Source: an uncultured Pelagibacteraceae bacterium (GTDB lineage: Bacteria; Pseudomonadota; Alphaproteobacteria; Pelagibacterales; Pelagibacteraceae). From it: a stretch of 64,000 nucleotides of DNA. Under the pieces are notes generated by a model. The model searched no databases. It had not been told where the DNA came from and saw only the letters and a list, made by a program, of their open reading frames with translations. Of the stretch, positions 3,442 through 56,649 are shown one piece after another (the stretch's first letter is position 1; every line of letters begins with the position of its first letter). The stretch covers positions 27,251 to 91,250 of the forward strand of contig CACHFP010000002.1 in NCBI GenBank assembly GCA_902579115.1. The letters are read 5' to 3'. Made by a program: the position numbers and the translations under genes.

Positions 3442-4206
3442 TTACTTACTTACTCTTTTATTTACATTTTCAAGAGCTTTGGTGAACTTAGTAAAGAATT
3501 TTCCTTTTTTCAATTCATTAAGAACCTGCATATTTAGGCCTTTTGGGGTCTGTGAGTCCGCTACGAGTTTTTTAAATCCTTGGGATGATTTATTTAAAGC
3601 ATCCTGACTTAACGCCAGAAATAATTCAGCTACATACTTATCAGCCAGCTTTTTGTTAATGCCTTTTTTTATTAACCATTTAGAACTCGTATTTAGTATC
3701 TCGTAGTATGCTGCCATTAAAGAAGCTGTCGACCAAAACTTATAGCTTAGTTTTTCATTTCTTACTTCTAAAACTTGCCCTAAATGTTTGAAAATATTTT
3801 TAGCAAATTTACTAGGTGGACAAACAATTACTGGCCCTTTTTTAATTTCGATTGGAGGTAAGGGTGTGACTCTAGCGATATTTTTATTTTTAGTAATTTT
3901 TTTAAGTTTATCCAAATTAATCGTCGAAATAAGACTTATTATTTTTTTATTTTTTGAAAATTTTAATTTAGGTAATATTTTATTACCCACATTAGGTGTG
4001 ACACCCAATAATACAACAGAGGATTTGTCTATTATTTCTTGATTATTGTTTAATACTTTTACTTTTCCATAACTTTTAGATAGTTTTTTAGCTAGGTTTC
4101 TATTTCTTGAAGATATATAAATTCTTTTAATTTTAAGCTTTGATTTAAAAATACCAAAGATAATTGATGATGAAATTTTACCAGTTCCTATAAATCCTAA
4201 AATCAT
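3442..4206 (-). CDS. NAD(P)-binding oxidoreductase, pyrroline-5-carboxylate reductase-like
   Basis: N-terminal Rossmann motif ILGFIGTGKI and a C-terminal region (SQTPKGLNMQVL) resembling the ProC dimerisation domain. The sequence is divergent, so the function is uncertain. Confidence 0.45.
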   Translation of the reverse strand: MILGFIGTGKISSSIIFGIFKSKLKIKRIYISSRNRNLAKKLSKSYGKVKVLNNNQEIIDKSSVVLLGVTPNVGNKILPKLKFSKNKKIISLISTINLDKLKKITKNKNIARVTPLPPIEIKKGPVIVCPPSKFAKNIFKHLGQVLEVRNEKLSYKFWSTASLMAAYYEILNTSSKWLIKKGINKKLADKYVAELFLALSQDALNKSSQGFKKLVADSQTPKGLNMQVLNELKKGKFFTKFTKALENVNKRVSK

Positions 4207-24575: not shown

Positions 24576-24742
24576 GGAACAATCTTAAATTAAACCGGGT
24601 ATTTGAACCATATTGTACACCTGGCATATGCCGAAGTACTAAAAAGGAGAAGATGAACAGAATTGAACTTCGTTCATTCTTCTCCAGAAAGACGGAGAAA
24701 AAATGAACGAAACAATAAGAGAAACAGTAAGGGGGAAAATCA
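24576..24742 (+). promoter_or_regulatory. Second part of the metY leader: possible SAM-V-like element, SD-sequestering hairpin and two mini-ORFs
   Basis: ATTGTACAC ... GTACTAAAAAGGAG resembles the SAM-V layout. GGAGAAGATGAAC (24646-24658) pairs with GTTCAT(T)CTTCTCC (24672-24685). uORFs lie at 24653-24706 and 24703-24750. Confidence 0.3.
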
Positions 24743-49027: not shown

Positions 49028-49975
49028 TTAAAGGATCTTATCACTAAATCCAAATGAAGTCATAAGTTCATTCCACTCTCTTTTTGATAATCCTGAGCTT
49101 TCAGGAGATACTTTTTGCCCTTTAATCATTTCTTGAATTACTTTTTTTCCCTTGGCTGATACATGAACAGCTCCAACTCTGTAATCTAAAAAAGCAGCGT
49201 GAGTAATGGGAACCCATTTTTTTACTGTTTCAAGCATAATTTCTGCATAAACTCGTATTTCATATTGTGCATGACTGTCTGCTCTAAGAAACAAAAAGTT
49301 CAATAAATTTAAAAGATCTGTTTTCCAATACCATTGGGTATAAGAATTTAAGGTCAAATTCATTCTAGCAAGTTCCCTCGCCAAACCAATTTTACTATCG
49401 TCAATGGTAGAACCATCATATCTTTCGTTAAGCATTTTTTCATAATTATCATAAGTTCTGGTGGCATCGTCTTTTAAAATTTTTAACACTTCTTCGGCTT
49501 GATCGCCGGTAATTAAATCTCCCCGTCCTTGACGATTAGAAGTTGATTGAGCTGATAATTGATCTTTCGACGGTATATAAAATTCTTTATCTAATATTGA
49601 ATATCTTGCTGAATATTCGTTTACATTTGCAGTTCTATGTCTAATCCACTGTCTTGCGATAAAGATTGGTAATTTAACATGATACTTTATTTCGCACATT
49701 TCAAACGGTGTTGAGTGCCAATGTCTCATTAAATATTTAATTAATCCCTCATCTGTAGAAACTTTCTTAGTTCCTTTTCCATACGAAACTCTTGCAGATT
49801 GAACTATCGAACTATCGTCTCCCATATAATCTACCACTCTTACAAAACCATGATCTAAAACTGGTAATGCTTCGTAAAGAATTCTCTCTAATTCAGGAGA
49901 AGTAACCCTTTTAGTTTGGTTTTTTTGAGCTTGTTGATCTGCAATTTCTTGCTTTTGTTCTTTAGTAAGTTTCAT
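49028..49975 (-). CDS. thyX: FAD-dependent thymidylate synthase ThyX
   Basis: ThyX signature [14 protein letters not shown]. Confidence 0.9.
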
Positions 49976-49988
49976 TTTGATTTATTTA

Positions 49989-50016
49989 TTGAATCTCTTA
50001 AAAAGAGTTTTATATT
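49989..50016 (+). promoter_or_regulatory. Candidate ssrA promoter
   Basis: TTGAAT (49989-49994), a 16-nt spacer, then TATATT (50011-50016). This would place the transcription start near 50022. Confidence 0.3.
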
Positions 50017-50020
50017 AATA

Positions 50021-50300
50021 GTGTTGGTTTTCCAACTATGACGATAAACGAATTTCGTAATAAACATCACGGACGTGGGGGCAGTACCCACCACCTCCAC
50101 CATTTACAACTTACGGGGGTGAATCAGGATCGACGGGTGTCTAAAGGCTGTTCTTTCGTACGAGATGGTTCCGACGTAACGGGCTAATTTATAAATGCAA
50201 ATCAAAAATTTGCACTTGCAGCTTAATTAACTAGTTTAATTAAGTTACGGGGTCCGGGGCACCTGGCAACAGAACGCCCCTGCGTATTGGCATTAACACT
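50021..50300 (+). ncRNA. ssrA: tmRNA gene, circularly permuted two-piece form (acceptor piece, then short spacer, then coding piece)
   Basis: The acceptor piece has the T-arm GTGGG/ggcagta/CCCAC and ends CACCTCCACCA at 50102. The coding piece starts GGGGGTGAATCAGGATCGACGGG at 50115. GGGGGTG pairs with CACCTCC and includes the G3-U identity pair. The tag ORF GCA AAT CAA AAA TTT GCA CTT GCA GCT TAA (50197-50226) encodes ANQKFALAA. The outer ends are uncertain. Confidence 0.8.
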
Positions 50301-50318
50301 TATTAATTCACAACTTTT
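50258..50318 (+). repeat. Repeat copy A: ssrA 3' end core plus right arm
   Basis: The 61 nt GGCACCTGGCAACAGAACGCCCCTGCGTATTGGCATTAACACTTATTAATTCACAACTTTT recur at 51732-51792 with 2 mismatches. It is followed by GATCACA twice at an 11-nt period (50327, 50338). Confidence 0.8.
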
Positions 50319-50376
50319 ATTAATTAGATCACAATAGGATCACACTGGAGAAAGACAAAATTAGTGAGCGGGGGAG

Positions 50377-50943
50377 TTATTTGTAAGCTTTATTTCCGAT
50401 CCACTCCATAAACTCAGATGTATAAACTCCGATATTTAAATTATTCTTAATATTCATATCTTTATGAAAGTTGTCGCAATACGCTGTAAATCTATCTCCA
50501 TTTTGGTTTTGAAACTTAAATCCACTTGTAAAACTTCTTCCAGTTTTATCCTGCATGTGAGGCTTGTTAGTTTTGGTTTCTTTTTTATAACCTTTAAATA
50601 AATTTGAAACGCTTTGCTCAACTTCTTTAAGTTTATTAATGCACTCATTATAATTCATAGCCATGCCTCCTCTAAGACCATCTATGATATAATTTTTATC
50701 TCCTTTTTTGTAATGAAAATTGATCCAATCATAGTTATTCGTTTTAATGTTAAATAAAACTGGGATGTATTTATCGTCCCGATAAAAACTTGTTTTATTG
50801 TTTTTAATTTTATCTTTGTCAAAAAATTTAAGGGCACTTTCCCCTATACTTAAACCTTCAATTTGAAAGTCTCTAATATCACCTGCCCAAGATGGAGTTA
50901 TTGAGCATAAACTTAAAATAACGATCACTAAAAGTTTTTTCAT
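50377..50943 (-). CDS. Secreted protein, island family member 1 (unknown function)
   Basis: Signal peptide MKKLLVIVILSLCSITPSWA, then GDIRDFQIEGLSIGESAL. It is paralogous to 54150-54746 and 54763-55332 and shares DKTG(R/K)S and a C-terminal W(I/L)..(K/E)A(Y/F)(K/R). Confidence 0.55.
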   Translation of the reverse strand: MKKLLVIVILSLCSITPSWAGDIRDFQIEGLSIGESALKFFDKDKIKNNKTSFYRDDKYIPVLFNIKTNNYDWINFHYKKGDKNYIIDGLRGGMAMNYNECINKLKEVEQSVSNLFKGYKKETKTNKPHMQDKTGRSFTSGFKFQNQNGDRFTAYCDNFHKDMNIKNNLNIGVYTSEFMEWIGNKAYK

Positions 50944-51363
50944 TTAACTAACTCTATATCCCTTTGCAAAAAAAACTTTATTGATAATATCAAAAAAATA
51001 ATAGGCCGTTTTATTATAAGTATATATATGAATGGTGCATTGAAATTTTGTATCTTCCTCTCTTAATTTTGTTTTTTGCCATTTATAACAAAGCTTATTA
51101 TCTTCTACCTTCCATTTTCCAATAATCTCACCTTCAGATTTAGAATATCCTAAATAATCTCCTTGTGAACTATGGGTTTCTTCAAAATAATTCTCATCAT
51201 AAAAATCATATCCGACAATCTTTTTATTGCTTAATGCTGTTTTAATTTCATAAGATTTAAGTTTTCTCAATTTGTTTATGTCAATCTTTGATAGATCTTC
51301 AAATGCAATTCCTGGGGTACAAAACAACAAACCTAGAACCAAGATCACTAAAAGTTTTTTCAT
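50944..51363 (-). CDS. Secreted hypothetical protein
   Basis: Signal peptide MKKLLVILVLGLLFCTPGIA. I recognised no family. Its stop abuts the next gene's start. Confidence 0.45.
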   Translation of the reverse strand: MKKLLVILVLGLLFCTPGIAFEDLSKIDINKLRKLKSYEIKTALSNKKIVGYDFYDENYFEETHSSQGDYLGYSKSEGEIIGKWKVEDNKLCYKWQKTKLREEDTKFQCTIHIYTYNKTAYYFFDIINKVFFAKGYRVS

Positions 51364-51630
51364 TTAACCCAACATATTCATCATCCATAAAGGAACACCA
51401 AATACAAAGCACCATGCTCCTAGTGGGCCAACCAGCGGCCAGATTAAAAAAGACATTGCTATCATCCAAGGGCTATCAAATTTAAAACCTAAATAGAAAA
51501 AATATAGATCTCCAAGAAATATGATTGCAATTATAGCCCATGTACCAAATACACCAACGCTAGCTGCTAGTCCTGCAAATAGATTTGAAAAAACGTTAGC
51601 TTTATTTTGATTTTTTCTTTTCATAATCAC
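51364..51630 (-). CDS. Small hypothetical membrane protein
   Basis: 88 aa with 2-3 TM segments. It has a GTG start at 51630 or ATG at 51624. Confidence 0.4.
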   Translation of the reverse strand: MIMKRKNQNKANVFSNLFAGLAASVGVFGTWAIIAIIFLGDLYFFYLGFKFDSPWMIAMSFLIWPLVGPLGAWCFVFGVPLWMMNMLG

Positions 51631-51632
51631 AT

Positions 51633-51792
51633 CATATCCGGACTCACTGGCGGACTCAATACGGACTCACCCAGCAAAGAAATAGCCGTTTTTTATAATC
51701 TAGAATTGTTGTATAACGTTAAAAGGTTCACGGCACCTGGCAACAGAACGGCCCTGCGTATTGGCGTTAACACTTATTAATTCACAACTTTT
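51633..51792 (+). repeat. Repeat copy B: left arm (three CGGACTCA repeats) + ssrA-end core + right arm (attP-like composite)
   Basis: 51633-51754 is 115/122 identical to 53545-53666. 51732-51792 is 59/61 identical to 50258-50318. Confidence 0.8.
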
Positions 51793-51832
51793 TTCATTTT
51801 GGGCACACATAGGTCACAGTGAATAAATTTTA

Positions 51833-52786
51833 TCACTCTAAATTTTTTAATCTTTTGTTAAATACAAAGTAAATTTTTTCAAGTTTTTCAATTAGCCATT
51901 CAACGTATTCATCCCATTTTTCCTCTTTATCAAAGAAACTATTCTCTTTCACAATTTTAATTCTTGAAGCAACTCTGTGAGGAAGCGGCTCCCAAAGAAA
52001 TTTTTCACCAAATTCTTTCTCGATTTTATCTTTTTCTTTTTCTAATATTTCAAAAATTTTTTGATCATCAACAATATATAATTCTGCAACAAGCCTATTA
52101 TCTCTTGCGTTAAAAACTGCATGAACTCCAATACCAGATACACCGCTTGCAAAAGTATGCCAATGTTGAGGTCTTGGCTTTCTTGTTGTTAAAGGTGTTT
52201 CTTCTCTCTCTCTTAATTTAGAAGTTAATCTCTCCCAAAAAGCTAATTGTTTAATTTTGGTATCACTTAGATTTTCAGTATCAATTTTTTGTGCTGCTGT
52301 TGAAACTTTTTTATACCAATTATTTGGTTTGCTTATTATATCAAATCTTGGTGCCATGCTTTCGCCTATCTTTAATACTTCGATCTGAACTCCAAAAAAA
52401 TTATACTCTTCTCCAGTAATTTTGTTTAACCAATCTAAAGTTGCTCTGTGTTCTTCATGAAATTTTGCAGCGACCCAAATTATAGTAGCTGCGTTTAATC
52501 CAGTTGCATAAGTTAATAATTGGCCAAGATGTTTATGGTCTGTTTTTTCTAATTGATTTTCTATTAATACCCAATTTCCACTTGCTTCATCTTTGCAGAG
52601 AATATCAGCACTAAAAGGACCAACATCTTTTTCTCTTGCTTCAACTATTAACTCGATACCAATCGCTTTGCTTAAAAGTTTAATGTTATCCTCTTTTGCA
52701 AGCCAAGGCGTAAACTCTGTGCCTTCGTGCTCCCAAATATCTCTTATCTCCACTTTTTCGATTTCTTTAAGATCAATTTTTTTCAT
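51833..52786 (-). CDS. PD-(D/E)xK nuclease-like N-terminal domain fused to a DUF4268-like C-terminal domain
   Basis: GPFSADILCKDEASGNWVLIENQLEKTDHKHLGQLLTY fits a D...E.K nuclease core of the NucS/DUF91-like type. The C-terminal half resembles DUF4268 as I recall it. Confidence 0.5.
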   Translation of the reverse strand: MKKIDLKEIEKVEIRDIWEHEGTEFTPWLAKEDNIKLLSKAIGIELIVEAREKDVGPFSADILCKDEASGNWVLIENQLEKTDHKHLGQLLTYATGLNAATIIWVAAKFHEEHRATLDWLNKITGEEYNFFGVQIEVLKIGESMAPRFDIISKPNNWYKKVSTAAQKIDTENLSDTKIKQLAFWERLTSKLREREETPLTTRKPRPQHWHTFASGVSGIGVHAVFNARDNRLVAELYIVDDQKIFEILEKEKDKIEKEFGEKFLWEPLPHRVASRIKIVKENSFFDKEEKWDEYVEWLIEKLEKIYFVFNKRLKNLE

Positions 52787-52792
52787 TTTTTA

Positions 52793-53536
52793 TTATTTAA
52801 TATCAAAATCTGCAATTATTGGATAGTGATCACTTAATGCAGAAGTTTCAGCGTTCTCCAATACTTCAATCTTTTGCAATTTATTGTATAAATCTTTGCT
52901 AGCAAACATATGATCAATCTGCCAAGGCACTTTATCCCGTCCGCTTTTATTTCTAAATGTTCGAACAAAGTTGGGGTATTTTTTAATTAAACAGTCTTCT
53001 AATAAAAAGTCCTCAATTCTTTCGAATATTATTTGTGATGTTCTCATACCTTTTCTCCAATACATGCCTTCAGTAGTATCCATTCGTTTATCTACATTAA
53101 AATCTCCTGCAAGAATAAAACTTTTAAATTTTTCATCAGACCAGCCTAAAAAGATAGGTGTTAGATCTGAGAGCATATTATGAATATTCGGCGCAACTGT
53201 TTTTTGGTTCTTAGATATTGCAGTTAAAATGCCGTAGAGATTGATAACAGCAATCTTCGTGTCTGCTAATATAATTTCTGAAACTATTAAAGATCCTTTA
53301 TATTTAGTATTAATTTCTGTTCTATTGATTTCTGTTCCGAAAGAAATAATGCAGTTCCCAAAATTTCTTTTTTCTCCATCAATCTGATTAATTTGATCGA
53401 AAAGAATATTTTTTTCATTAAGATTATTCGAAGCTTTAACTTCTTGAAGCAAATAGAGATCAGCTTTTAAAGAATTTTTTAAAACAAAATCCAACGTTTT
53501 ATCTCTTCCGTTAATATTCCAAGAAACTATCTTCAT
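52793..53536 (-). CDS. Endonuclease/exonuclease/phosphatase (EEP) family protein
   Basis: MKIVSWNINGR start, LQEVK, GDFN and C-terminal SDHYPIIADF, which are the canonical EEP/ExoIII-like motifs. Confidence 0.7.
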   Translation of the reverse strand: MKIVSWNINGRDKTLDFVLKNSLKADLYLLQEVKASNNLNEKNILFDQINQIDGEKRNFGNCIISFGTEINRTEINTKYKGSLIVSEIILADTKIAVINLYGILTAISKNQKTVAPNIHNMLSDLTPIFLGWSDEKFKSFILAGDFNVDKRMDTTEGMYWRKGMRTSQIIFERIEDFLLEDCLIKKYPNFVRTFRNKSGRDKVPWQIDHMFASKDLYNKLQKIEVLENAETSALSDHYPIIADFDIK

Positions 53537-53544
53537 TTAATCAA

Positions 53545-53666
53545 CATATCCGGACTCACTGGCGGGCACAATACGGACTCACCCAGCAAAGAAATAGACG
53601 TTTTTTATGATCTAGAATTGTTGTATAACGTTAAAAGGTTCACGGCACCTGACAAAAGAACGCCCC
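53545..53666 (+). repeat. Repeat copy C: left arm + ssrA-end core
   Basis: 122 nt with 7 mismatches to 51633-51754. The core GGCACCTGACAAAAGAACGCCCC lies at 53644-53666. Confidence 0.8.
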
Positions 53667-53701
53667 TTTTCGAATTATCATTTTTAGTATAAAAAAGATT
53701 T

Positions 53702-54070
53702 ATGAATTTTCAAAACTCAATTAAAATATGCTTTCAAAAGTTTGCCGATTTTAACGGAAGAGCATCTCGATCGGAGTTTTGGTATTTTTATCTATTCGCA
53801 ATTTTAGTTTATTTCATTACGATATTTATAGCTATTCAAATACCATTCTTTTTCGCAATAGCTATTTTATTTGCATTAATACTTTTTGTTCCTGCATTAG
53901 CTGTAACGGCAAGACGTTTGCACGATACCGGTAAATCTGGATGGTGGCAATTAACAGCTTACATCCCTTACGTTGGAATTATAGCTTCGATAATTTTAAT
54001 CGTTGTTTGGTGCACTGAAGGTGAGAAAAAGAAAAATAAATACGGAAAACCAATAAAATTTAAACGTTAA
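53702..54070 (+). CDS. DUF805 family inner membrane protein
   Basis: GRASRSEFWYFYLF and ARRLHDTGKSGWW motifs. It is the only plus-strand gene in the array. Confidence 0.7.
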   Translation: MNFQNSIKICFQKFADFNGRASRSEFWYFYLFAILVYFITIFIAIQIPFFFAIAILFALILFVPALAVTARRLHDTGKSGWWQLTAYIPYVGIIASIILIVVWCTEGEKKKNKYGKPIKFKR

Positions 54071-54071
54071 C

Positions 54072-54094
54072 GGTACTTAGCAACAGAACGCCCA
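54072..54094 (+). repeat. Repeat copy D: ssrA-end core only
   Basis: GGTACTTAGCAACAGAACGCCCA has 19/23 identity to the core. It starts 2 nt after the DUF805 stop. Confidence 0.6.
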
Positions 54095-54149
54095 TTTTAA
54101 TGACTTAGGACTCGCATTAAATGTCGAGTTCTAAAAAAAAAGCTAGGTA

Positions 54150-54746
54150 TTATTTAAAAGCTTCATATCTTAACCAATTTTCATATTCTTTTGAATATAA
54201 GCCTACACCTAAGTTATCTATCCATTGTTTTTCTTTTGTAATTTTTTTTGACCAGTCTACACAATCGATTACAATTATTTCTGATGTTTTTGAAAATGTT
54301 ATCTCTATATCTTTTTTTTTGCTTTTTCCAGTCTTGTCTCCTGGATGATTGTAAATGGATCCTTCTTTAATTTTAAGATTATCAAATGTGGCGTTTATTT
54401 TTTTTGAAATTTCTTTTTGTTTTTTTAAACAATCACCGAATGGCTTATTGTCAAAAAATATACCGCCTGAGATATTATAAATTTTAAAATTTTTATCGTT
54501 TTGTTTAAATGCAAACTGAATATTTTCATAAGTAGTGCCTTTAGATACAATATCAATTAAATAAAATTTTTTATTAGGGTAGTAAGACTTAAGTGCATTG
54601 CTTAACTCATCTTTGGTATAATAATTTAAAGCGCTATCACCGATACTCATACCTTCTATCTGAAAGTCTCTAATATCATCTGCTTGTGATGGGATTATAA
54701 AGTAAAAGCTTAGAAATATGATTACTAAAATTTTTTTCATATTCAA
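54150..54746 (-). CDS. Secreted protein, island family member 2
   Basis: Signal peptide, then DDIRDFQIEGMSIGDSAL, DKTGKSK and a C-terminal WLRYEAFK. Confidence 0.55.
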   Translation of the reverse strand: MNMKKILVIIFLSFYFIIPSQADDIRDFQIEGMSIGDSALNYYTKDELSNALKSYYPNKKFYLIDIVSKGTTYENIQFAFKQNDKNFKIYNISGGIFFDNKPFGDCLKKQKEISKKINATFDNLKIKEGSIYNHPGDKTGKSKKKDIEITFSKTSEIIVIDCVDWSKKITKEKQWIDNLGVGLYSKEYENWLRYEAFK

Positions 54747-54762
54747 TTATCCTAGAATAATT

Positions 54763-55332
54763 TTATCGATAAGCTTTATTTCTAATCCAAAAAAGAAGAT
54801 CTGTACTTGTCAAGCTTACGTTAAGTGGGGCTCCATACTTTGCTTTTAGATCTCCTTCATATTTGAAACATGCAGCATTTAAATTCCCACCATTTAACTT
54901 AAATGAAGTTTGAATAACCTTACTTTTACCGGTTTTATCAATTCCGTGTACTTTGTTATTTTTTTTTCCTTTTGTACTAACACTAGAACTGACATTTTTG
55001 ATGATTTTTTTTTGTTTCTTTGAACAGTCCTTAAAATTGTTGAATTTGATCTCACCAATAACTGCTTCGATTATATATTTTTGATCTTTAGATTTATAAA
55101 ATACAGAAATTGCATCGTATTCTGAAGAGGTTTTTGTAATTCGTGCATGAGTAAAACTTTTATCTTTATATAAGTCCACCTTAAAAGATTTTTTTATTTC
55201 TTCTTTGCTTAAATGTTTTAGTAAACTTTCACCAATACTCATTCCTTCAATTTCAATATCTTGAATATCATCCGCCTGAGATTGGAGCATGAAACATAAG
55301 CTTAGAGCGGTAATAGCTAAAAGTTTTTTCAT
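54763..55332 (-). CDS. Secreted protein, island family member 3
   Basis: Signal peptide MKKLLAITALSLCFMLQSQA, then DDIQDIEIEGMSIGESLL, DKTGKSK and a C-terminal WIRNKAYR. The ORF-track start at 55356 is a GTG that adds 8 residues and reaches into the repeat. Confidence 0.55.
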   Translation of the reverse strand: MKKLLAITALSLCFMLQSQADDIQDIEIEGMSIGESLLKHLSKEEIKKSFKVDLYKDKSFTHARITKTSSEYDAISVFYKSKDQKYIIEAVIGEIKFNNFKDCSKKQKKIIKNVSSSVSTKGKKNNKVHGIDKTGKSKVIQTSFKLNGGNLNAACFKYEGDLKAKYGAPLNVSLTSTDLLFWIRNKAYR

Positions 55333-55353
55333 CAGTCTCATCTTATTCGGAAA

Positions 55354-55526
55354 CACCTAAGAAAGAAATAGCCGTTTTTTATGATTTAGTAATGTTATAT
55401 AATGACTTCTTACGAAAGGAGTCGAAATGAGTGGTTTGGAAATATTAATTGTTGTTGCGGTTTTAATTGCGATAACTAATTGAAATGTGTTCTTGAGGTT
55501 AGGGGCACCTAGCAACAGAACGCCCC
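55354..55526 (+). repeat. Repeat copy E: partial left arm, about 95-nt insertion, ssrA-end core
   Basis: CACCTAAGAAAGAAATAGCCGTTTTTTATGATTTAGTAATGTTATATAATGAC parallels the left arm of copies B and C. The core GGCACCTAGCAACAGAACGCCCC lies at 55504-55526 (22/23). Confidence 0.65.
55427..55483 (+). CDS. Candidate 18-aa hydrophobic peptide (MSGLEILIVVAVLIAITN), type I toxin-like
   Basis: TATAAT at 55398-55403, AAGGAG at 55416-55421, a 5-nt spacer, then the ATG. The ORF is followed by the GGGGC...GCCCC hairpin of the repeat core. Confidence 0.35.
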   Translation: MSGLEILIVVAVLIAITN

Positions 55527-56198
55527 CTAGAATTTGTAAATTTCCTTCAATAATTGTTTTAATTCAATTTCATCTGTCCTGGCATATAAATCAAAAAGAA
55601 TTGAATTAAGAATATCTTTATAATGTCTATAATTTTTATCATTTCCAAAAGAGGAAAATTTCATCTGTGAAAGTTTTATCTCTGTCGGACTGAAGATTTG
55701 AGGAACTTTGATATAACCTACACTGCCATATAAATTTGATTTTTTTATCAAAAAATTAACGTCTTTGTTTTTTTTTGGCCAAATTTTATCTGGTATATTT
55801 TCATTTATTTTTTTTGCGAGGCCAATATTATCTTCATAAATTTGTTTATTATCATTATTTTGATAATCTTTTTTTATATTTATATCTAAAAAAAATTTCG
55901 GGTTATATATATCTAAATTTTTAATTATTATTAAGTCTGAAAAAATTGAGTCCATCTCAAAATTAATTTCTATTTTTTCAGCTTTAAAAATATTTTTGAA
56001 GTAGTTTTTATCTTTATTTAAAATCTCTATATCCTCTATTTTAACATTACCAGAATAATTAAAATTTAATTTTTTAATCTTTACTGGTCTTTCAACCCAA
56101 TTAGAAAATTTATTGATATAGAAGTTAGAAATAATTTTTTTATTAAAAAAAATTAAAATAGAAATAATTATGAGGACGATCACATTTATTCTCGACAT
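55527..56198 (-). CDS. Hypothetical membrane-anchored protein (weakly AsmA-N-terminal-like)
   Basis: N-terminal TM segment, then an Asn/Lys/Ile-rich beta-like sequence. I made no confident family call. Confidence 0.35.
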   Translation of the reverse strand: MSRINVIVLIIISILIFFNKKIISNFYINKFSNWVERPVKIKKLNFNYSGNVKIEDIEILNKDKNYFKNIFKAEKIEINFEMDSIFSDLIIIKNLDIYNPKFFLDINIKKDYQNNDNKQIYEDNIGLAKKINENIPDKIWPKKNKDVNFLIKKSNLYGSVGYIKVPQIFSPTEIKLSQMKFSSFGNDKNYRHYKDILNSILFDLYARTDEIELKQLLKEIYKF

Positions 56199-56204
56199 GA
56201 AAAT

Positions 56205-56286
56205 ATCATATCTAGACTCACTGGCTGGCGCAATACAGACTTACCAATTGTAAAAATGTTTAGAGCACTAGGCAACTGAACGCCTC
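56205..56286 (+). repeat. Repeat copy F: degenerate left arm + degenerate core
   Basis: ATCATATCTAGACTCACTGGCTGGCGCAATACAGACTTACC parallels ATCATATCCGGACTCACTGGCGGACTCAATACGGACTCACC. The core AGCACTAGGCAACTGAACGCCTC has 18/23 identity. Confidence 0.55.
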
Positions 56287-56649
56287 TTATTCTCTCATAA
56301 AATTTTTATAAATTAATCCGTAAATTAAAATATTAATAATTATCAGCGATATACCAAGATATATTTGAATTTCAGCAGTTAATCCCTCAGGATAAACAAT
56401 AGGAAAAAAATAGTTGTTAATAAAATCATTAGAATAGGTTGTTAACTCTCCTTTATACAAAAACCAATTTTCGAGATAAGTTAATGGACAAACAGAATTT
56501 GTAAGTTCTATATAAATTCCCCATAATAACGCTGGGAGGTGAATATAGATGATTTTAGAAAAAATAAAGAAGAACAGTCCACCAAAAATAACAAATAAGA
56601 TAAAAATTAAATGTGCAATTAAAGTAATATTTGCAAGTAACTCGTACAT
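56287..56649 (-). CDS. DUF2784 family membrane protein
   Basis: About 120 aa with 4 TM segments. The motif CPLTYLENWF is characteristic of DUF2784. Confidence 0.55.
   Translation of the reverse strand: MYELLANITLIAHLIFILFVIFGGLFFFIFSKIIYIHLPALLWGIYIELTNSVCPLTYLENWFLYKGELTTYSNDFINNYFFPIVYPEGLTAEIQIYLGISLIIINILIYGLIYKNFMRE

Follow-up and report, generated by a model that had tools for sequence, protein, structure and literature searches.

A candidate cassette-junction module fused to copies of the ssrA 3′ end in SAR11

Introduction

In islands that adjoin a transfer RNA (tRNA) or transfer-messenger RNA (tmRNA) gene, partial copies of the 3′ end of that gene separate one insertion from the next, as described for the islands of Prochlorococcus, which are shaped by tycheposons (bioRxiv 10.1101/2020.12.28.424599), and for the additive flexible genomic islands of Methylophilaceae (PMC10872708). 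In the tandem ssrA islands of Dehalococcoides, a repeat of ~20 bp from the ssrA 3′ end recurs downstream of the gene, with 11 occurrences in strain VS. The ~150 bp of intergenic DNA surrounding a repeat are similar as well; ssrA is followed by an integrase gene together with a block of recombination genes, and each island spans many kb (McMurdie et al. 2009, PMC2764846). Here we analyze an array of small gene cassettes behind ssrA, the tmRNA gene, in a 64-kb stretch of DNA from an uncultured Pelagibacteraceae bacterium of the SAR11 lineage (contig CACHFP010000002.1, positions 27,251 to 91,250; hereafter the window), with the focus on a non-coding arm lying between the start codon of a leftward gene and a copy of the ssrA 3′ end.

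No other bacterial lineage in the sea is as abundant as SAR11, which, to our knowledge, has long been described as free of mobile elements. The sections of PMC11796062 drawn on here describe a large flexible gene pool in genomes from which canonical mobile elements and integrases are almost absent; they also report a tmRNA-linked genomic island, and they mention a partial tRNA repeat inside four tRNA-linked islands and none for the tmRNA-linked one. An original prediction, made from the letters of the window, described the arm as a duplicated junction element whose phased repeats might bind an integrase or excisionase, or act as iterons. Judged from sequence conservation, the arm represents not a local duplication but a non-coding module of ~135 nt with copies across SAR11. 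We consider it probable, if only narrowly so, that the arm forms one half, the one carried by the cassette, of a junction module setting the boundaries of small cassettes behind ssrA, namely a portable 5′ control region with tandem putative protein-binding sites, fused to an ssrA-derived recombination core.

Results

A family of arms in SAR11

The two arm copies at 51630–51755 and 53542–53667 are 94% identical over 126 nt, and the genes that they flank are unrelated, encoding an 86-aa membrane protein and a nuclease of the endonuclease/exonuclease/phosphatase (EEP) family; both observations agree with the original prediction. We scanned a collection holding one genome per species for exact matches to 19 specified bases of the arm's middle block and obtained 64 loci. 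Of these, 41 belonged to single-amplified genomes (SAGs) and metagenome-assembled genomes (MAGs) of Pelagibacteraceae/Pelagibacterales, in which the similarity extended well past the search pattern; the loci outside SAR11 were single chance matches in unrelated phyla with no likeness beyond the pattern. A longer pattern, also requiring an exact middle-block match, added 53 marine metagenome contigs. The arm family therefore has at least 92 distinct copies in the 41 genome loci and 53 contigs. An alignment of 82 unique arms was near-gapless, with a mean column identity of 88%, and its conservation ended abruptly on both sides, at the start codon of the leftward gene on the left and after GCCCCT on the right. 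Conservation of the word region, the ssrA-like stretch and the core was not built in by the search.

When an nhmmer profile made from 82 homologous arms was run on the window, it returned two full copies at 51621–51757 (E = 3e-46) and 53535–53669 (E = 3e-45), and it recovered the partial and degenerate copies noted earlier, at 55345–55404 and 56198–56289. The remaining matches covered the core only: 50233–50282, which is ssrA itself, 54054–54097 and 55495–55529. The parts of the two full junctions are as follows, the core being a copy of the last ~25 nt of ssrA and w0–w3 the short repeats, or words, of the arm.

51625–51729, + strand: left arm copy 1, with w0 (AATCACA) at 51625–51631 and w1–w3 (each CGGACTCA) at 51639, 51651 and 51662
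51670–51712, + strand: AT-rich block of left arm copy 1, nearly invariant
51713–51729, + strand: ssrA-like 17 nt of left arm copy 1
51730–51754, + strand: core copy 2, ACGGCACCTGGCAACAGAACGGCCC, a member of the repeat family; a weak alpha_tmRNA match lies at 51685–51758
51755–51832, + strand: right arm of cassette B, words GGGCACA and GGTCACA at 11-nt spacing; runs up to the DUF4268 stop codon
53537–53641, + strand: left arm copy 2, with CGGACTCA at 53551, CGGGCACA at 53563 and CGGACTCA at 53574
53642–53666, + strand: core copy 3, ACGGCACCTGACAAAAGAACGCCCC

Start codons and word alleles

The left edge of the arm is locked to a start codon. In 77 of the 92 unique arms (84%), a leftward open reading frame (ORF) of at least 40 aa begins 54–56 nt from the middle block (72 ATG, 5 GTG), against 9% for random positions in the same DNA. 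This fixed register upholds the earlier claim that the arm constitutes the whole 5′ untranslated and promoter region of the leftward gene. In the window, the ATGs at 51622–51624 and 53534–53536 stand 8–10 nt from the conserved CATATCC, close to the arm as described. The proteins that start there have diverse N-termini (MKKLL-type signal peptides, MKIVS, MNTII, MKRRK and others), and this diversity at a fixed register indicates that one leader has been joined in register to unrelated genes.

At the other edge, a core copy follows every arm of this family (type 1) for which the contig is long enough, with a few cores disrupted (for example in loci L039 and L017), so that the expected pairing of arm and ssrA-end core holds throughout. 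An intact ssrA gene lies within 8 kb, upstream of the arm and in the same orientation, at 26 of the 41 genome loci; for several of the others, the contig carries ssrA in another fetched stretch.

The three repeats of CGGACTCA at 51639, 51651 and 51662 are spaced by 12 and 11 nt, as noted before. This octamer occurs eight times in the window against 0.29 expected, a count that none of 100 shuffles reached; five of the eight lie in the two arms, and the other three are single matches within coding sequence. Across the family, the repeats number four, all of them direct words that fit YGRNCWCA and follow one another at about one helical turn. The predicted three phased repeats are thus real, and a fourth, w0, adjoins the start codon. 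The word w1 is mostly CGGACTCA, w2 is CGGGCACA, CGATCACA or CGGACTCA, and w3 is CGGACTCA or CGATCACA. The middle repeat of copy 2 does read CGGGCACA (GGGCACA), but the view that it is mutated was mistaken, since this is the commonest w2 allele family-wide. Every word has a nearly invariant 3′ half, CNCA, and differs between alleles in its 5′ half; conservation also covers the spacers CTGG and ATA and the flanking CAAT. The repeats are likewise kept in homologous arms of other genomes, the outcome that the original prediction had asked about. A role of w0 as a Shine-Dalgarno sequence was considered and rejected: w0 varies between alleles, and a 4-mer of that kind was present for just 10 of the 45 long ORFs in the window. 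Possible likenesses of the words to known sites (CRP half-site, GANTC methylation site, alphaproteobacterial LexA box, IHF consensus and lambda arm site) were set aside as well; none appears to fit all word alleles.

Right arms carry a pair of words of their own. As described earlier, GATCACA/GATCACA follows the ssrA core and GGGCACA/GGTCACA follows the core at 51730, both at 11-nt spacing. Of 33 cassette types, 18 carried the same allele in this pair and in w2 (shuffled mean 8.9, p = 0.0004), and alleles were shared across one core, between a left and a right arm ~70 nt apart, in 0 of 15 cases. Similarly, right and left arm agreed at 15 or more of 19 nt in 22% of same-cassette pairs versus 6% of cross-cassette pairs. 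Related cassettes differ in position between genomes: they directly adjoin ssrA in some and come after other cassettes elsewhere. Matching within cassettes, its absence across cores and these shifting positions together indicate that a cassette with both arms is an inherited unit and that exchange takes place at the core.

The resulting anatomy, with three to four words left of the core and two right of it at 11–12 nt phasing and with an association pattern that puts exchange at the core, resembles a phage attachment site. In lambda-type attP, phased direct repeats flank the core on both sides. It is possible, if doubtful, that the words are arm-type sites of a heterobivalent tyrosine integrase, or excisionase sites, that cassettes move as circles, and that left arm, core and right arm make up a complete attP, the position before a start codon being incidental. 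Several findings speak for this: direct repeats in helical phase stand on both sides of an ssrA-derived core, the junction at 51625–51832 reads left arm, core, right arm, the layout expected between tandem elements, and word alleles match within a cassette and not across a junction. All 135 nt are conserved, like a site for several proteins, and the tandem ssrA islands of Dehalococcoides share similarity in ~150 bp around each repeat (PMC2764846). A fixed start-codon register, however, is not required of a recombination arm, and a lineage with at least seven word alleles would need many cognate integrase variants, of which none has been seen.

Composition of the array

Five more cores follow ssrA over the next 6 kb (51730, 53642, 54070, 55502 and 56262), all in the orientation of ssrA, and five small gene modules lie between the cores, the last holding a leftward 223-aa protein. 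DUF2784 lies beyond the last core, with fumC farther on. The other features of this region are listed below.

49028–49975, − strand: thyX, left neighbor of ssrA
49985–50284, + strand: ssrA, a two-piece (permuted) tmRNA gene with tag ANQKFALAA (Rfam alpha_tmRNA, 215.7 bits; ARAGORN)
50256–50280, + strand: ssrA 3′ hairpin GGGGC-N15-GCCCC (last ~25 nt, the core), copied at every cassette boundary
50281–50376, + strand: right arm of cassette A, with TGCGTATTGGCATTAACACTTATTAATTCACAAC, a T-run and two GATCACA words 11 nt apart
50377–51624, − strand: cargo of cassette A, three leftward genes for proteins of 188 aa, 139 aa and 86 aa (the membrane protein)
51833–53536, − strand: cargo of cassette B, a DUF4268 protein (317 aa) and the EEP-family protein (247 aa), both leftward
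53702–54094, + strand: armless rightward cassette with a DUF805 gene (53702–54070) whose 3′ end enters core copy 4
54070–54094, + strand: core copy 4
54150–55332, − strand: cargo of cassette D, two leftward paralogues of the 188-aa secreted protein
55345–55404, + strand: partial left arm; only w3 (CGGAAACA) and the AT-rich block are left, with an insertion between arm and core
55427–55483, + strand: inserted tiny ORF MSGLEILIVVAVLIAITN with an AAGGAG ribosome-binding site, directly 3′ of a perfect TATAAT in the partial arm
55502–55526, + strand: core copy 5
56198–56286, + strand: degenerate left arm including its core, with words AGACTCA, TGGCGCA and AGACTTA; middle block deleted
56262–56286, + strand: core copy 6, decayed, the distal end of the array

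The right arm of cassette A terminates at the stop codon of the leftward 188-aa gene and is 78% identical to 51708–51827. The 188-aa and 139-aa proteins have signal-peptide-like N-termini, and none of the three proteins of cassette A gave a Pfam match. Four leftward cassette genes share a 5′ coding segment of ~50 nt for the MKKLL signal peptide (50893–50943, 51313–51363, 54690–54740 and 55282–55332), although the mature proteins have diverged or bear no relation to each other, a hint that exchange or conservation may reach from the arm into the signal-peptide region. A SAM-V riboswitch elsewhere in the window (24588–24652, + strand, 72 bits) is unrelated to the arm.

A census of 42 SAR11 sequences found 132 cores: 26 in ssrA itself, 52 with a type-1 arm and 54 others, which have either arms of other families (types 2 and 3/4) or no arm. 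The type 2 and 3/4 arms have other sequences and the same architecture as type 1. From the leftward start codon they run through two to four tandem words at 11-nt spacing and an AT-rich block with a TATAAT-like element to ~20 nt that resemble ssrA just 5′ of its hairpin, and then the core. Such arms occur in loci L015, L017, L027, L030, L059, L087, L091 and others; type 2 reads CAAAGTTTTAGATTTTTAACA...GCGTATAATAAGGAATAATGTTACAAGG and types 3/4 read GGGCTTYWGGTTGTA.... Their tandem words are wholly different between copies (GCCGA..., ACTCGTAA, GGACGCA, GGGCGGA), so it is the repetition that is conserved and not the word.

Cassettes measure 0.25–2 kb, with a few larger, and fall into two classes. 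Leftward cassettes have a left arm of ~105 nt between their first start codon and the core, and often also a right arm of ~70 nt between the preceding core and the last stop codon, consisting of TGCGTATTGGCGTTAACACTTATTAATTCACAAC, a T-run and two words 11 nt apart. Rightward cassettes have neither arm; their gene terminates at or within the core, and 10–25 nt separate that core from the next ATG. Arms thus track gene orientation, and bare cores suffice for residence in the array, because armless rightward cassettes sit there.

Several cassettes deserve separate mention. Minimal rightward cassettes (core, 10–25 nt, ATG, ORF, stop, core) show no visible promoter; one is at 53702–54094 of the window, and three stand in a row directly behind ssrA in L016 (reverse orientation, 1736–2619). 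This arrangement suggests that they are expressed by read-through from ssrA. A family of tiny hydrophobic ORFs of 16–18 aa (MSGLEILIVVAVLIAITN, MAEVFIVIVIIGYFFG and MIEVLILVMALAMITN; at 55427–55483 of the window, in L057 and in L018), each with a good ribosome-binding site just 5′ of a core of the GGCACCTAGC variant, could encode small membrane peptides or be type I toxin-like genes. Large cassettes of 4–7.5 kb in L093, L120 and L023 encode helicase-, methyltransferase- and restriction-like proteins of 600–880 aa, as judged from sequence; given such proteins, the ssrA array may also hold defence systems. L058 contains an 'empty' cassette (reverse orientation, ~3905–4025) made of a right arm, the last ~20 nt of a left arm and a core, with 120 nt between cores, and two cores in L057 (7327–7357) are merely 30 nt apart. 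Both resemble traces left when a cassette is lost or exchanged aberrantly.

Such remnants fit another explanation, in which the arms are mostly leftovers of past integrations that evolve neutrally and stay similar through gene conversion, or persist as homology anchors through which ordinary homologous recombination swaps cassettes between SAR11 cells. Arrays and genomes do hold several near-identical copies, decayed ones exist (55345–55404, 56198–56289, the 'empty' cassette and the tandem cores), and no recombinase was found. Gene conversion, however, predicts that adjacent arms ~70 nt apart are more alike than cassette ends 1–2 kb apart, and the opposite was observed (0/15 versus 18/33). The sharp stop of conservation at start codon and core end also speaks against it, and the fixed ATG register and the invariant CNCA in every word point to selection. 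We regard this explanation as improbable. The contents of the array bear as well on the suggestion that the words are iterons of a replicon origin, which lacks support because no replication gene is present. Short direct repeats adjoining an AT-rich block are all that favors it. No cassette has an initiator-like gene (the cargo being DUF4268, the EEP nuclease, DUF805 and secreted proteins of unknown kind), and the arms are chromosomal and always linked to ssrA. The units of iteron plasmids are usually ~20 bp, against words of 8 nt at 11-nt spacing, and an iteron origin is barely conceivable.

Folding and transcription

For 82 arms, RNAalifold gave consensus energies of −5.8 kcal/mol (plus strand) and −6.7 kcal/mol (minus strand), with 0 compensatory pairs on either strand. 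Single-sequence fold z-scores were +0.96, +1.49 and +1.61, meaning that the arm folds worse than its shuffles. The word region is unpaired, its variable positions have no covarying partner, and only the core hairpin (5-bp stem, 15-nt loop) is stable. A search of both strands against Rfam, at the gathering threshold and at E ≤ 5, returned only tmRNA and tmRNA fragments. The original prediction had set compensatory change, expected of an RNA, against conservation of the repeats; the repeats are what is conserved. With no covariation, the association with the core intact and the phased repeats preserved in other genomes, its description of a junction arm holds. The arm is present in metatranscriptome contigs and has a stable hairpin at its end, as a riboswitch or leader of the leftward mRNA or a small RNA ending in an ssrA-like hairpin would, but the folding results make any such structured RNA very improbable.

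Marine metatranscriptome contigs span the arm from core to start codon and run on into different genes exactly at the ATG. These Logan contigs of RNA runs carry no strand information, may derive in part from DNA and end at branch points; the window's own cassettes were in none of the RNA runs. A consensus scan for promoters and terminators gave no informative call within the arm. On reading the plus strand, we noted that types 1 and 2 have TTTTTA-N16-TATAAC/T in common just 5′ of the core, and the partial copy in the window has, at 55404–55429, a perfect TATAAT followed by AAGGAG and the tiny ORF. These two features make a rightward promoter in the arm plausible. Such a promoter would plausibly serve the armless rightward cassettes that often follow an arm. 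A plus-strand ORF through the arm (51607–51780, 57 aa) was rejected as a gene: it has no conserved start, its substitutions lack codon periodicity, and its upstream part is antisense to unrelated genes.

Recombinases and viruses

Motif screens for the tyrosine-recombinase box II and for serine recombinases found none in the window, in the 94 loci (~0.5 Mb; 41 genome loci and 53 metagenome contigs) or among 179 representative cassette proteins, apart from one spurious match. The integrase or excisionase that the original prediction had suggested thus did not appear in the material screened. Three arm patterns had no match in 2.9 million IMG/VR viral contigs, and blastn of the junction against 50,697 phage records found no match. 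All of this weighs against a lambda-type attP, as does the occurrence, in varied contexts, of rightward cassettes bounded by bare cores; a recombinase might nonetheless bind the words.

The core pattern did occur in IMG/VR, in 12 viral contigs. At 11 of these matches there is a complete tmRNA gene, some in clear phage gene contexts, and we therefore rejected them as attP sites; the twelfth contig, L006, is tRNA-rich and had no tmRNA gene called. Two of the viral contigs, L001 and L008, have a T4-like gene set and complete two-piece tmRNA genes with tag ANDDMVFALAA, and the 3′ hairpin of these tmRNAs includes the 19-nt core pattern derived from SAR11 cores.

Discussion

In the reading that we favor, a control region and a recombination core form one junction module, and the steps would be as follows. 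Recombination confined to the core would reassort cassettes without parting the two arms of any one cassette, and the recombinase would come from elsewhere, in trans, given that none is encoded locally. The left arm would provide a promoter, an unstructured leader and a translation start context, allowing expression against the direction of ssrA transcription, and it probably holds divergent promoters. Rightward cassettes might be expressed by read-through or from the rightward TTTTTA-N16-TATAAC/T element in the preceding arm. The words could be tandem binding sites of one sequence-specific DNA-binding protein, probably arranged as head-to-tail multimers on one helix face, and this protein may act at both cassette ends, through operator or insulator sites or accessory recombination sites.

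The words may serve recombination or regulation, and the two roles would be compatible. Words on both sides of the core, alleles matched at cassette ends and conservation of the whole module point to recombination; an arm that tracks gene orientation, the fixed ATG register and the armless cassettes point to expression.

Several points weigh against the junction module with a portable control region. Its uniform conservation of ~90–100% over 135 nt exceeds the usual need of a promoter and leader and suits a multi-protein recombination site equally well, and middle-block conservation is partly there by construction, because the scans demanded an exact match. The consensus scan found no convincing leftward sigma-70-type promoter in the arm and no more sites in the region as a whole than in shuffles, and the nature of the metatranscriptome contigs means that no 5′ end can be read from them. 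The allele matching is only statistical (18/33), and the cassette types are perhaps not fully independent. The recombinase is hypothetical, and the screens for it applied motifs to ORFs within ~8 kb per locus, a cruder approach than whole-genome profile searches.

A bolder extension of the junction module, which we hold to be rather unlikely, is an integron-like gene capture system of SAR11. The tmRNA gene would serve as landing site and as outward promoter, cassettes would recombine at the copies of its 3′ hairpin, the recombinase would come in trans from chromosome or phage, and inverted cassettes would bring a plug-in control module whose words match at both ends. If this were true, the matching of words would imply a cassette-specific recognition code, written in protein alleles or in pairing of a right-arm transcript with the 5′ leader.

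The junction module offers a handle on the gain, loss and expression of cassettes in SAR11. It is a searchable marker of cassette boundaries for SAGs, MAGs and long reads, it defines cis sites from which a binding protein could be fished, and the arm is a candidate portable promoter and leader for organisms without genetic tools. It invites comparison with the ssrA islands of Dehalococcoides, which bear an integrase, and with those of Prochlorococcus, which tycheposons have shaped.

Dehalococcoides and SAR11 both combine a streamlined genome with ssrA 3′-end repeats behind ssrA and similarity in the flanks of these repeats. They differ in that SAR11 cassettes are far smaller than the Dehalococcoides islands, no recombinase was found, and the flank is a sharply defined module locked to start codons. 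Of the features of tandem or additive ssrA islands, same-orientation ssrA 3′-end repeats are present in SAR11, and an integrase in or beside the island is absent by motif screen. Tycheposons have their own tyrosine recombinase and replication genes, unlike SAR11 cassettes, and the parts of the additive-island and tycheposon papers considered here describe no conserved arm with phased words.

Integrons resemble the SAR11 array in stacking many single-gene cassettes at one site, each bounded by a short recombination site, and SAR11 rightward cassettes, apparently promoterless and downstream of a strongly expressed gene, add to this likeness. However, the SAR11 array has no adjacent intI (its neighbors are thyX and ssrA on the left, DUF2784 and then fumC on the right), and its boundary is an ssrA hairpin copy rather than an attC with imperfect long inverted repeats, nothing beyond the hairpin being folded. 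About half of the SAR11 cassettes, moreover, are inverted and have their own 5′ module. Streptococcal cis-mobilizable elements (CIMEs) are flanked by att sites, lack recombination genes and accumulate in tandem. Compared with CIMEs and lambda attP, the SAR11 module comes without an identified cognate integrase or helper element, and its arm is fused to start codons. Very small cassettes, no local recombinase, two cassette classes and a start-codon-locked module with phased, end-matched words set the SAR11 array apart.

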